From: Ramlibacter sp.
GTDB lineage: Bacteria; Pseudomonadota; Gammaproteobacteria; Burkholderiales; Burkholderiaceae_C
DNA length: 32,000 bases
Reading direction: 5' to 3'
Assembly: GCF_036383835.1 (NCBI RefSeq)
Contig: NZ_DASVNN010000012.1
Span: 26,424-58,423, forward strand
The translations under genes and the position numbers were made by a program. Positions within the stretch are counted from its first letter, which is position 1; every line of letters begins with the position of its first letter. A model generated the notes under the pieces. The model did no database searches, was not told the DNA's origin, and saw nothing but the letters and a program-made list of their open reading frames with translations. Positions 14,693-17,865 of the stretch are shown here, one piece after another.

Positions 14693-15246
14693 GCCAGGTG
14701 CAGCGCCCGCAACCGGGCATCGAGGACGGCCTCGAGCTCGGGCACCGAACAGACGACGCTGCACCCGTCGAAGGCGCGCAGCCGCTGGACGTTGTCGAAC
14801 TCGATGCGGCGCGGGCGCAGCGTCACCTCCTCGCGCGGCGCCTGCGTGATGACGACGGGCTCGGTGTCGCAGGCGAACACGATGCCCTGGATGCCCAGCT
14901 TGCCGGCCTGGGCGAACATGTTGGTGGGCAGCGTGTCGCTGATGCCCAGGGCGCACTTCGCCACCGTGTTGCTGGTGGCCGGCGCGATCACCAGCGTGTG
15001 ATAGCGCTCGTGGTACAGGAAGCCCACCGGCACGGCGCTCGCGCTGCGGTCGGTGAAGATGCGGAAGTTCTCGCGCAGCACGTCCAGCCGCAGGCCGTAC
15101 ATCGGCAGGATCTCCTCCGCCGCCGCCGACAGGAAGAGGTCGACGCGCGGCAGCCGCTGCGCCACCGCCAGCGACTCCGGCAGGAAATGGCCGGAGCCGG
15201 TCAGCGCCCAGGCGAACCGGCCGCCCGGGGCGGCGGCATCGCTCAG
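14671..15246 (-). CDS. AfpA/DmrB-like flavoprotein (candidate dihydromethanopterin reductase)
   Basis: FAWALTGSGHFLPES and VIAPATSNTVAKCALGISDTL are flavoprotein (PF02441-type) motifs. There is no in-frame ATG, GTG or TTG for about 100 codons upstream of the conserved N-terminus. The start is placed at the CTG 15246-15244, which overlaps the regulator stop (CTGA), so it is uncertain. Confidence 0.65.
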   Translation of the reverse strand: MSDAAAPGGRFAWALTGSGHFLPESLAVAQRLPRVDLFLSAAAEEILPMYGLRLDVLRENFRIFTDRSASAVPVGFLYHERYHTLVIAPATSNTVAKCALGISDTLPTNMFAQAGKLGIQGIVFACDTEPVVITQAPREEVTLRPRRIEFDNVQRLRAFDGCSVVCSVPELEAVLDARLRALHLAWNASSS

Positions 15247-17219
15247 CCGTTGTGCGTCACCGGGATGTGCAGCTTGTGCATGCGCCGGTACAGAGTGTTG
15301 CGGCTCACGCCCAGCGATTTCGCCACGTGGCTCACGTTCCAGCGCTGCGACTCCAGCACGTCGAGCAGCGACTGCCGCTCCTGCACGTGCTGCGGCGACA
15401 GGAACGTGACGTCCGCCGCCGCCGTCGCGAGGCTCGCCGCCGCGGCCGGTCCGGCCGGCGCGCCCAGCGAAGGGAAATGCTCCACCCCCAGGGGCGCGCC
15501 CGCTGCCAGCGCCACCGCGCTGCGCAGCACGTGGTGCAGTTGTCGCAGGTTGCCGGGCCATGGATGGCGCAGCAGCAAGTCCCAGGCCGCCGGCGTGACC
15601 GCGGCGTCGGCGCGGCCCTCGTCGGCCAGCAGGTTGCGGATGATCTCGGCGCGGTCGGTCCGCTCGCGCAGCGGCGGGATCTGCAGCTCGATGCCGGCCA
15701 GCCGGTAGTACAGGTCCTCGCGGAAGCTGCCCTCGCCCACCATGTCGGCCAGGTTGCGGTGGCTCGCGCTGATCAGCTGGAAGTCCACGGCGCGCGCTTC
15801 GTCGGTGCCCAGCGGCGTGACCATGCGTTCGTCCAGCACGCGCAGCAATCGGGCCTGCAGCGGCAGCGGCATGTCGCCGATCTCGTCGAGGAACAGCGTG
15901 CCGCCGTCCGACTGCACGATCTTGCCCCGGCGCCCGCCCTTCTCCGCGCCGGTGAAGGCGCCCGCGCGGTAGCCGAAGAGCTCCGCCTCGATCAATGTCT
16001 CCGGCAGGCTCGCGCAGTTGATCGCCACGAACGGTCCGTCCGCCCGGTGGCCGGAAGCGTGCACGGCACGGGCGAACACCTCCTTGCCGGCGCCCGTCTC
16101 GGCGCGCAGCAGCAGCGGCGTGCCGCCGTTGACCACGCGCCGCGCCGTCGCCAGGTGCGCCAGCAAGCGCGGATCGCCGAACGTCGCGGCGGGGATGGCG
16201 CGGGCGGGCCGCAGGCGGGCGGCGTGCGGCAGGGCCGGCACGGCCGGCGGCGCCGGGACGCGCACGCGTGCCGGGACGGCATTCCTGGCGAAGTCCTCCT
16301 CGCGGGCGGGCTGGCGCGCCACCGCGAAGAAGCGGTTCGCCGCGTTGGCCCGGTACGTGACGACCGGATGGAAGGCCGCCCGGTGGCTGCGCTCGAGCAT
16401 GGCATCCAGCGTGGTCTGGAAGATCTGCTCCAGCCGCGCTCCGCGCAATTCACCGTGCGTGCTCCCCAGCTGCAGCAGGGCACTGTGGTTCGCCGCGAGG
16501 ATGCGGCCGTCCTCGTCGACCACCAGCTTGCCCTCGTGCAGGGTGTAGACGAACTCGGGGCGGCTGTGGAAGTGGATCGGGTGCGCATCGCGGAAGCGCG
16601 TGTCGATCAGCCGGTTCTCGATCATGCGCGCCGTCATGGCCAGCAGCACCAGCAGGTGGTTCTGCGGCTGCACCGAACGGCTGCTCACGTCGAGCACGGC
16701 GGTCATCTCTCCGGCGGGATCGTGGACGGGCACGGCGGTGCAGGTCAGCCCGGTGTACTGGCTGAGGAAATGGTCGGCCTGCTGCACCACCACCGGCCCG
16801 GCCTCGACCACGCAGGTGCCCATGCCGTTGGTGCCGACTTCCGCCTCGCTCCACACGGCCCCGAGCTCCAGGCCCATCGGTTGCGCGAGCCGCTCGAATT
16901 CCTGCGAGGTGACCATGTGCAGGATCACGCCGTCGGTGTCGGTGAGGACCACCGCCAGGCCGGGATCGCCGAGCTGCTGGTACAGGGTGGTCATCTCGTA
17001 GCGCGCGCAGTCGATGACCGAAGCCATGCGGCGCAGGCGCGTGGGCAGGTCGACGCGGCTGAGCACCGGTGGCCGCCGCGCCTGGCTGGGATCCAGCCCA
17101 TGTTCCCTGACGCAGCGCGCCCACGACTGTGCGACGGCATCGCTCGTCGCATGCAGCATCCCGCCGCGCACCACGTCGAACACGCGGTGCGCGTGCTCAA
17201 GCGGATCAGAGATCGGCAT
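15243..17219 (-). CDS. Sigma-54-dependent transcriptional activator, AcoR-like (N-terminal GAF-type sensor, AAA+ domain, Fis-type HTH)
   Basis: Walker A ETGAGKE, sigma-54 contact loop GAFTGA (ELFGYRAGAFTGAEKGG), WPGNLRQL, and the C-terminal HTH NVSHVAKSLGVSRNTLYRRM. I prefer the ATG at 17219 (GAGGGGA 6 nt upstream) to the ATG at 17249. Confidence 0.9.
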   Translation of the reverse strand: MPISDPLEHAHRVFDVVRGGMLHATSDAVAQSWARCVREHGLDPSQARRPPVLSRVDLPTRLRRMASVIDCARYEMTTLYQQLGDPGLAVVLTDTDGVILHMVTSQEFERLAQPMGLELGAVWSEAEVGTNGMGTCVVEAGPVVVQQADHFLSQYTGLTCTAVPVHDPAGEMTAVLDVSSRSVQPQNHLLVLLAMTARMIENRLIDTRFRDAHPIHFHSRPEFVYTLHEGKLVVDEDGRILAANHSALLQLGSTHGELRGARLEQIFQTTLDAMLERSHRAAFHPVVTYRANAANRFFAVARQPAREEDFARNAVPARVRVPAPPAVPALPHAARLRPARAIPAATFGDPRLLAHLATARRVVNGGTPLLLRAETGAGKEVFARAVHASGHRADGPFVAINCASLPETLIEAELFGYRAGAFTGAEKGGRRGKIVQSDGGTLFLDEIGDMPLPLQARLLRVLDERMVTPLGTDEARAVDFQLISASHRNLADMVGEGSFREDLYYRLAGIELQIPPLRERTDRAEIIRNLLADEGRADAAVTPAAWDLLLRHPWPGNLRQLHHVLRSAVALAAGAPLGVEHFPSLGAPAGPAAAASLATAAADVTFLSPQHVQERQSLLDVLESQRWNVSHVAKSLGVSRNTLYRRMHKLHIPVTHNG

Positions 17220-17270
17220 CGATGTCCCCTCGCTCCCCGGCGGATGCATCCGGGCAGTACGCCTTCATTC

Positions 17271-17295
17271 TGGAACACTCTGTCGAGTGTTTCCA
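17271..17295. promoter_or_regulatory. Inverted repeat TGGAACACTC-tgtc-GAGTGTTTCCA; candidate activator-binding site (UAS)
   Basis: Perfect 7-bp arms AACACTC/GAGTGTT with a 4-nt spacer, extended by TGG/CCA with one extra base. It is centred about 65 nt upstream of the predicted sigma-54 transcription start, in the divergent regulator/folB-like gap. Confidence 0.4.
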
Positions 17296-17321
17296 CAAGG
17301 ATTTGTGAATGTCCGTTCCAG

Positions 17322-17337
17322 TGGCCCGCAAGTTGCT
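17322..17337 (+). promoter_or_regulatory. Sigma-54 (-24/-12) promoter heading the plus-strand folB-like/mptG/mtdB... genes
   Basis: gTGGCCCgcaagTTGCTttt is TGGCAC-N5-TTGCW with one mismatch. The predicted start near 17348 leaves a 29-nt leader that contains GAGGGGGA before the ATG at 17377. Confidence 0.6.
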
Positions 17338-17376
17338 TTTCAGCCCGCAGCACGACGGGATGCTCGAGGGGGATCC

Positions 17377-17865
17377 ATGTTCCAGGCCCTGGACCGTACC
17401 GACGATTTCCACTTCCCCGGATCCTCCGGGCAGGAGCCGCTGGACCTCGTCTTCATCGAAGGCTTCAGCGGCGAGACGGTGATCGGCATCCACGACAGCG
17501 AGATGCACGCACCGCAGCCGGTCATCATCGACCTGTGTGCCGGCATTCCCCGAGTGCTCGCCTGCGAGACCGACCGCATCGCCGACACCATCGACTACGG
17601 CGCGCTGCGGGAACGCCTGCAGCGCCTGCTGCGCGAGCACGGCGTGCAGCTGCTGGAAGCCCTGGCCGAACAGGTCGCGCGGATCGCGATCGACGAATTC
17701 CACGCCCACTGGGTGCGCGTGCGCGTGGTCAAGCCGCGCAAGTTCGAGGACACGGCCGCCGTGGGCGTGCTGATCGAGCGCAGGCGGCCCGTGCCGTCGC
17801 CGGCCGCGGCGCGCGCGGCGACCTTGAGGCTCATCGGCCACGGCCTGGTGCCGGGAGGGCGTTGA
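17377..17865 (+). CDS. Dihydroneopterin-aldolase-like (FolB family, Orf17) protein
   Basis: The tail of ORF 17014..17865: ...LDLVFIEGFSGETVIGIHDSEMHAPQPVIIDL...DTIDYGALRERL...EALAEQVA, a FolB-type pattern with extra N- and C-terminal residues. Confidence 0.72.
   Translation: MFQALDRTDDFHFPGSSGQEPLDLVFIEGFSGETVIGIHDSEMHAPQPVIIDLCAGIPRVLACETDRIADTIDYGALRERLQRLLREHGVQLLEALAEQVARIAIDEFHAHWVRVRVVKPRKFEDTAAVGVLIERRRPVPSPAAARAATLRLIGHGLVPGGR

Follow-up and report, generated by a model that had tools for sequence, protein, structure and literature searches.

The 32,000-nucleotide stretch of Ramlibacter DNA analysed here (the window; Comamonadaceae, Burkholderiales; GC content 72%) is over its whole length a one-carbon (C1) island. 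We consider how this island may be controlled, and in particular a minus-strand gene for an enhancer-binding protein (EBP) and a -24/-12 sigma-54 promoter, PfolB, that lies between this gene and a divergent folB-like gene. The folB-like gene opens a plus-strand string of 13 genes that includes mtdB, mch, fae and xoxF, and after the string a convergent pterin-4a-carbinolamine dehydratase gene closes the island. The minus strand carries fhcC, fhcD, fhcA and fhcB together with a HisA/F-like gene, and the island further holds a MoxY-like sensor fragment, pqqB, pqqD and pqqE, and MfnD-like, Hydantoinase_A-like and amino-acid-kinase-like genes. The gene list (Table 1) was rebuilt from family matches and from start codons aligned with the gene calls of Ramlibacter monticola, and the 4HFCP-synthase-like and flavoprotein genes were assigned by analogy with that species.

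The regulator and the PfolB promoter

The open reading frame (ORF) of the regulator, 15243..17249 on the minus strand, matches Sigma54_activat (PF00158, E 2.6e-59), AAA_lid_14, HTH_8 (E 1.2e-11, residues 624-659) and GAF, with a weak match to PAS, and its precomputed Pfam annotation adds PF26965 (MimR_N). The motifs ETGAGKE, GAFTGA and DEIGDM are present in the translation and are invariant across 44 orthologs. Its domains are those of a complete sigma-54 activator: the AAA+ domain carries Walker A, Walker B and GAFTGA, and a Fis-type helix-turn-helix stands at the C-terminus. The N-terminus matches a DhaR model (E 3.6e-23) and the solved DhaR sensor (PDB 4lrx), and the MimR_N/GAF/PAS arrangement is that of the AcoR/MimR/DhaR group. 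The sequence is 100% identical to a database protein from a Ramlibacter sp. metagenome-assembled genome (MAG). In that copy, and in all orthologs by N-terminal alignment, the second Met (17219) is the start, so the gene spans 15243-17219 and the divergent gap spans 17220-17376 (157 bp). A preliminary description of this DNA had put forward the full EBP signature (ETGAGKE, GAFTGA and Fis-type helix-turn-helix), an AcoR-like N-terminal sensor, a 157-bp divergent gap and a -24/-12 element 40 nt before the folB-like ATG. All of these stand: the signature is seen in the translation and the domain matches, the sensor has the architecture just named, the gap holds with the second-Met start, and the element lies exactly where it was described. 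Overlapping or abutting gene ends suggest that the regulator is co-transcribed with the cofactor genes downstream of it (11977-15246).

PfolB has the exact GG-N10-GC spacing and a single mismatch to TGGCAC-N5-TTGCW. The folB-like ATG (17377) lies 40 nt past its last base and is preceded by the Shine-Dalgarno (SD)-like sequence GAGGGGGA; the transcription start given in Table 1 follows from the standard -12 distance. Because TGGC-N7-TTGC matches 7 times in the window against 1.42 expected, mostly within genes, the significance of the element rests on its conservation and not on the single match. A comparison set of 80 loci in species-representative genomes was drawn up with an alignment of 8 sensor domains (the relatives number at least 585), and each regulator/folB-like intergenic region was scored on both strands with a simple weighted -24/-12 consensus, with shuffled sequences as controls. 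A score of at least 18 (nGGC-N7-TTGC) directed toward the folB-like gene is reached in 77 of the 80 regions, compared with 9/80 when the opposite strand is read and 3.1% of the shuffled controls. A score of 20 is reached in 26/80 regions, in none on the opposite strand and in 0.06% of shuffles. Across the 80 loci, and in the alignment of Ramlibacter sequences, GG and TTGC are fixed and the flanks are divergent. As a phylogenetic footprint this is strong evidence for PfolB as a real, conserved sigma-54 promoter for the folB-like gene, tied to the regulator. Its retention in 77 loci, set against the reverse strand and the shuffles, gives good support to sigma-54/EBP control, and such control of the island is very likely real and conserved. 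One might instead read the -24/-12 match as a chance product of GC-rich DNA and suppose that the folB-like gene is transcribed from a sigma-70 promoter that went unrecognised. The other matches in the window, lying mostly inside genes, would fit that idea, but an element kept in fixed orientation between divergent flanks in 77/80 loci makes it highly improbable.

A separate feature of the same gap concerns the regulator gene. The sequence CATTCTGG lies at 17266-17273, and either it or one of its variants, GATTCTGG or GATTGTGG, recurs ~50 nt upstream of the regulator start in many loci. The complements of these sequences, CAGAAT/CACAAT, may represent the -10 box of a sigma-70 promoter that serves the regulator gene itself.

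The folB-like gene lies divergent to the regulator in 79/80 loci of soil and water bacteria that span Comamonadaceae, the Rubrivivax/Leptothrix/Ideonella/Methylibium group and some Rhodocyclaceae MAGs, and DHPS-like and DUF447 genes follow downstream of the regulator in nearly all loci that are long enough. Two arrangements are seen. In type I loci (the window, Ramlibacter spp., Piscinibacter sp. XHJ-5, Azohydromonas sediminis and a few MAGs), whose regulators are roughly at least 64% identical over their full length, the gene order is folB-like, mptG, mtdB, ATP-grasp, mch, RimK-like, CitG-like, fae, xoxF and cytochrome c. In type II loci, which make up ~70 of the 80 and include Variovorax, Rubrivivax, Ideonella, Methylibium, Leptothrix, Rhizobacter and JOSHI_001, the folB-like gene is monocistronic, and a convergent ATP-grasp-mch-fae operon lies on the other strand, beginning with mptG and mtdB where its start is seen (loci L085 and L086). 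By this comparison the folB-like gene is the only universally conserved target of PfolB, and since it stands alone in ~70/80 loci, the linkage of PfolB to enzyme genes is specific to one lineage.

Promoter-like elements before fhcB and fae

A second canonical promoter, PfhcB, precedes fhcB. TGGCAC-N5-TTGCG is found there in 7/7 long loci, type I and type II alike; in the window, the GTG start of fhcB is followed by a WTCPFC motif. Beside this promoter, a SD-like GGAAGGG is found in the window upstream of the predicted start of the fhcB mRNA, which would be near-leaderless. PfhcB, a palindrome and a further promoter-like element of the opposite direction together form a compact back-to-back unit in the HisA/F-like/fhcB gap. 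These last two belong to recurrent classes, which we call type A (palindromes with the core ACAC-N-GTGT) and type B (TGGCAYG-N5-TG(A/T)).

Type A palindromes lie upstream of PfhcB in 7/7 loci, mostly by ~55-130 nt (~90 nt in the Azohydromonas locus, L084), and a position weight matrix finds them near PfolB in the Ramlibacter clade only. A type A-like site is also present within the CitG-like coding sequence of type II loci, 160-260 bp upstream of the fae element; there TGGCACAGACTGTCATG is embedded in the codons for the peptide VAQTVM, and the window carries the variant TGGCGCAGTCTGTCATG. Its half-sites are a GCA Ala codon and a T-ending codon in 37/40 type II genes, and the T-ending codon is kept in 45/45 CitG-like genes scored. 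Mean GC content at third codon positions (GC3) in these genes is 0.86 (subset measured), and the retention of rare A/T-ending codons at a GC3 of ~0.86 argues for selection on the DNA itself. In Burkholderiales bacterium JOSHI_001 (L086, 2090-2522) the xoxF operon runs divergently from the mptG operon, and the 430 bp between them contain three ACAC-N-GTGT-like palindromes and a canonical cGGCACGCGGATTGCA directed at xoxF; toward mptG the best sigma-54-like match has a spacing of +1 (TGGCAT-N6-TTGCA). The palindromes may be the binding sites of the EBP.

Type B elements stand in two gaps, one before fae and one beside fhcB. In type II loci, 57 distinct sequences share TGGCA(C/T)G-GA(A/T)C-(G)TG(A/T)(T/A)A ~105 nt upstream of the fae ATG; positions 0-4, 6, 12 and 13 are invariant, both edges are sharp, and the element occurs once per locus. 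The class as a whole is seen upstream of fae in ~58 related loci. The window element has GG at positions 1-2 and TG at 12-13, with TGT instead of TGC at -12, and type I loci keep the same register, with cGGCATGGAATATGT in three Ramlibacter genomes (window 23789), cGGCACGGAATCTGA in Piscinibacter XHJ-5 and TGGCACAGAACATGA in Azohydromonas. This type I alignment, with TG at 12-13, rules out a +2 spacing defect in the Ramlibacter fae element. In the fhcB gap, type B is present in 7/7 loci that reach that far, against an expectation of 0.01-0.05 per locus. The window copy at 8528 runs antisense into the HisA/F-like gene (8573-9304, -), toward the plus-strand genes 9303-12036, ~760 nt off.

What these elements lack is the GC at -12. 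TGA or TGT is found there in 57/57 fae sites and in 7/7 fhcB-gap sites, and among fae sites only the homologous site of JOSHI_001, TGGCATGGCAAGTGCA, has the canonical TGC. For this reason type B is not classed as a sigma-54 promoter, to which it is alike in geometry only, and is described here as a probable sigma-54-type promoter with an atypical -12. A CACG-N3-CGTG transcription-factor palindrome is the less likely alternative, as the fhcB-gap copies CACGCTTCCTG and CACGCTTCATG break the palindrome. A search in each genome for 12-mers common to the regulator/folB-like and CitG-like/fae gaps returned nothing consistent. A riboswitch in the fae leader was likewise considered and is rejected: no known RNA family came up in the folB or fae leaders when the window and five loci were scanned against Rfam, the structure that RNAalifold predicts for 47 fae leaders amounts to no more than a weak hairpin (-1.55 kcal/mol, with some U-A/C-G exchange at one pair), and the window leader folds no better than its shuffles (z = 0.05).

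Extent of the proposed regulon and the candidate signal

The preliminary description had further proposed that one sigma-54 promoter could drive the entire plus-strand string. Its account of the string, 13 genes from 17377 to 28563 with gaps of no more than 94 bp and ATGA/GTGA overlaps, agrees with our rebuilt list, in which the widest gap is the 94 bp between the CitG-like gene and fae, the second is 30 bp, at least five junctions are 4-nt overlaps and several of these are ATGA/GTGA. Of its overall interpretation, however, we retain sigma-54/EBP control of the island and not the single 11-kb operon, given that the folB-like gene is alone in ~70/80 loci, that a promoter-like element precedes fae and that a second canonical promoter precedes fhcB. 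Transcription of all 13 genes from PfolB as a single unit of ~11 kb, with PfolB as the sole regulated promoter, would account for the tight gaps and the many 4-nt overlaps, and for the 11-gene order, folB-like gene to cytochrome c gene, that Ramlibacter monticola, Ramlibacter G-1-2-2, Piscinibacter XHJ-5 and Azohydromonas have in common with the window. It would also agree with a scan of 15000-29400 that found no terminator-like or sigma-70-consensus sites, but at 72% GC such a scan is weak and its negative outcome carries little weight. In the lone sizable gap of the string, moreover, stands a conserved promoter-like element that type I genomes retain as well, and in most relatives fae and mch are unlinked to PfolB. 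We therefore consider the single unit unlikely; the control of the island looks like a multi-promoter sigma-54 regulon.

The reading we favour, and hold to be fairly probable, is that an EBP of the AcoR/EatR/MimR/DhaR type, encoded within the H4MPT (tetrahydromethanopterin)/methanofuran island, activates PfolB and probably a small island-wide sigma-54 regulon. Of this, the arrangement of the domains, the places of the motifs and their conservation in ~80 genomes are shown. A trigger acting on the MimR_N-GAF-PAS sensor would lead the AAA+ domain to remodel sigma-54 RNA polymerase at PfolB, switching on the folB-like gene and also those genes that the Ramlibacter lineage has fused to it downstream. 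PfolB and PfhcB would be the canonical promoters of the regulon, the elements before fae (23789) and facing 9303-12036 (8528), with TGA/TGT at -12, its probable further members, and the ACAC-N-GTGT palindromes possibly the sites bound by the EBP. We infer that type B elements may act as promoters and that a single EBP could serve PfolB, PfhcB and the type B sites.

A narrower scheme would confine the EBP and PfolB to pterin cofactor supply, by way of the folB-like gene and the cofactor genes presumed to share a transcript with the regulator, and leave fae, mch, mtdB, fhc, xoxF and the type A and type B elements to other factors. It draws on the folB-like gene being the sole universally conserved target beside the EBP, on the cofactor-biosynthesis genes that come after the regulator, and on the absence of type A from most regulator/folB-like gaps. 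Yet the canonical PfhcB needs some EBP, and only one EBP gene was found in the parts of the island examined; a dedicated 658-amino-acid sensor for one 162-amino-acid enzyme would also seem unusual. A close paralog beside a sigma-54-promoted xoxF is a further point against it. In a Polaromonas MAG (L060), a 720-amino-acid regulator paralog (54% identity; 5986-8148, +) is divergent from a xoxF-type gene (3381-5216, -) that is 85% identical to the window xoxF and has TGGCGCAAAAGTTGCA ~125 nt upstream of its ATG. Restriction to cofactor supply is accordingly judged unlikely.

As to what the regulon responds to, the guide is EatR (PA4021), a sigma-54 EBP from Pseudomonas aeruginosa that is encoded divergently and senses acetaldehyde, which is an intermediate of its pathway and not the growth substrate. 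By analogy, formaldehyde is the most natural candidate here, and the signal may be formaldehyde or a closely related small carbonyl or C1 metabolite. The fuller version of our reading, in which a formaldehyde- or C1-carbonyl-sensing EBP coordinates the whole H4MPT/methanofuran module of many Burkholderiales (the synthesis of cofactors, Fae and the Fhc complex, joined by XoxF in some lineages) through canonical and TGA/TGT -12 promoters, including PfhcB and the 8528 element as a back-to-back pair sharing one palindromic enhancer, is put forward only tentatively. EatR, like the window regulator, is encoded divergently from a -24/-12 promoter, but it controls eutBC, a permease and an aldehyde dehydrogenase, whereas the window regulator adjoins H4MPT, methanofuran and XoxF genes. 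NCBI has given the name EatR to two Ramlibacter orthologs (P0010 and P0021), which, together with the shared divergent layout, might suggest that the regulator is itself orthologous to EatR and senses acetaldehyde for ethanolamine catabolism, its position in a C1 island being incidental. We regard this as extremely doubtful: eutBC, permease and aldehyde dehydrogenase genes are not among its neighbours, which in 79/80 loci are H4MPT and methanofuran genes, and an NCBIfam search found no EatR model matching either the regulator or its N-terminus. The name has probably been over-transferred.

Several observations weigh against an island-wide, carbonyl-responsive regulon. No type II locus has type A in its regulator/folB-like gap, nor do L003-L008, and ~35 of the type II gaps carry instead an oriented CCGGGTGAAACAC, which starts 29-70 nt upstream of the -24 of PfolB, with preferred positions of ~-31 and ~-47, and is absent from the Ramlibacter clade; the EBP binding site is therefore only a candidate. 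The predicted start of PfhcB lies only 0-7 nt ahead of the fhcB start codon, and so short a leader is odd for a working promoter. Type B is without the near-universal -12 C at every one of the 57 fae sites, and because its 'spacer' is also conserved it could possibly be a transcription-factor site. On the protein side, an AlphaFold model of the whole regulator has a mean predicted local distance difference test (pLDDT) score of 72 and falls below 50 at residues 130-160 (the GTNGMGTC region), so that the model of the sensor domain is unreliable. The regulator has three invariant cysteines, but two of the three are family-wide and occur also in DhaR, and they offer no specific argument for formaldehyde chemistry. 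Finally, rpoN is not in the window.

Among better-known EBPs, AcoR, MimR and DhaR share with the window regulator the PF26965 MimR_N, GAF and PAS sensor, although outside the AAA+ domain the sequence relationship is distant. Their signals are small carbonyls, namely acetoin, acetone and dihydroxyacetone, with the difference that DhaR is controlled by its protein partners DhaK and DhaL and not by free ligand. None of the three is known to control C1 metabolism. MmoR, the sigma-54 EBP of the soluble methane monooxygenase operons of methanotrophs (Gamma- and Alphaproteobacteria), is copper-responsive together with MmoG. It offers the same pairing of sigma-54 and EBP on a C1-oxidation operon, but one for methane oxidation and with no link to H4MPT genes.

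The formaldehyde regulators covered by a 2022 review include FlhRS, HxlR and TtmR, which are among the entries of its table, and EfgA, AdhR and FrmR, which appear in its text. In that review, 'enhancer' occurs 0 times and 'sigma' once. These systems (FlhRS, FrmR, HxlR, AdhR/NmlR and EfgA/TtmR) resemble the present one in controlling the production or removal of formaldehyde; as far as that review extends, they differ in that they include no sigma-54 EBP and no reported regulator of H4MPT-linked pathway genes. The preliminary description had noted that sigma-54/EBP control is not the described mode for H4MPT genes. Our search for sigma-54, RpoN or EBP together with tetrahydromethanopterin, fae or formaldehyde likewise found no such control described in the searchable literature, most subscription journals lying outside that search. 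A search on MimR brought up unrelated papers only.

An EBP acting at a -24/-12 promoter is in itself a textbook mechanism. The novelty lies in the regulon, and possibly also in the signal and in the variant form of -12. Regulation of H4MPT-linked formaldehyde oxidation and of its cofactor genes appears to be essentially undescribed, the 2022 review covering no activator of these genes. If the favoured reading is true, Variovorax, Rubrivivax, Methylibium, Ramlibacter and their relatives share a defined regulator that can be put to the test and that is likely a new small-aldehyde sensor, with possible use as a biosensor for synthetic methylotrophy. If type B elements are promoters, ~60 natural sigma-54-type promoters without the -12 C would be at hand, and these would inform how -12 locks the closed complex.

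Gene content and minor features of the window

Table 1. Positions of genes and candidate regulatory elements in the window, with the PfhcB equivalents of six other loci.
Feature	Position	Strand	Remarks
fhcB-fhcA-fhcD-fhcC	8399 to 3819	-	
PfhcB, canonical -24/-12, TGGCACACCGCTTGCG	8413-8428	-	before fhcB (GTG 8399)
Type A palindrome, TGGAACACTGTGTGGCG	8481-8497		between PfhcB and divergent type B element
Type B element, TGGCACGCTTCCTGATA	8528-8544	+	HisA/F-like/fhcB gap; points away from fhcB
AfpA-like flavoprotein, DHPS-like/DUF6513, DUF447 and 4HFCP-synthase-like genes	11977-15246	-	cofactor biosynthesis; directly downstream of regulator
EBP gene, 658 amino acids	15243-17219	-	MimR_N/GAF 85-214, PAS 233-303, AAA+ 361-522, AAA lid, HTH_8 624-659
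Type A palindrome, TGGAACACTCTGTCGAG	17271-17287		core ACAC-N-GTGT; candidate site; overlaps CATTCTGG
PfolB, -24/-12 sigma-54 promoter, TGGCCCGCAAGTTGCT	17322-17337	+	predicted start ~17348, leader ~29 nt
folB-like gene	17377-17865	+	dihydroneopterin aldolase family; first gene after PfolB
mptG-like gene	17875-18903	+	beta-RFAP synthase
mtdB	18900/18909-19817	+	frame 3, Mpt_N match
ATP-grasp gene	19828-20970	+	
mch	20967-21947	+	
RimK-like ligase gene	21944-22906	+	
CitG-like gene	22873/22903-23781	+	
Type A-like site, TGGCGCAGTCTGTCATG	23582-23598		in CitG-like coding sequence, 207 bp upstream of fae element
Type B element, cGGCATGGAATATGTGA	23789-23805	+	94-bp gap before fae; candidate internal fae promoter
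fae	23876-24388	+	
xoxF-type PQQ dehydrogenase gene	24419-26236	+	WDFDG
Cytochrome c gene	26236/26245-26646	+	
MoxJ-like gene	26643-27506	+	
Unknown gene	27515-28210	+	
Unknown gene	28207-28563	+	end of plus-strand string
PfhcB equivalents	L081 18766, L082 18612, L083 20202, L084 18980, L085 18811, L086 18023		

The pyrroloquinoline quinone (PQQ) enzyme of the window is a member of the methanol/ethanol PQQ dehydrogenase family (TIGR03075, E 1e-218). Its sequence carries WDFDG, the D-x-D signature, an extra Asp after the catalytic Asp, of lanthanide-dependent XoxF. By family membership and D-x-D, the enzyme is of the XoxF type. In the same string, ORF 18905-20047 (frame 2) is a shadow ORF, the true gene at that place being mtdB. 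A 256-amino-acid plus-strand ORF at 8555-9325 is similarly a shadow of the HisA/F-like gene (GC3 0.79 vs 0.89).

Two gene starts are unusual. The HisA/F-like gene and the MfnD-like ATP-grasp gene (9303-10298, +) are divergent with overlapping start codons, so that the promoter of each would lie inside or beyond the other gene. The AfpA-like flavoprotein gene (14671-15246, -) has no ATG, GTG or TTG near its expected start; its frame opens with CTG at 15246, overlapping the regulator stop; either the start is non-canonical or the assembly may be at fault here.

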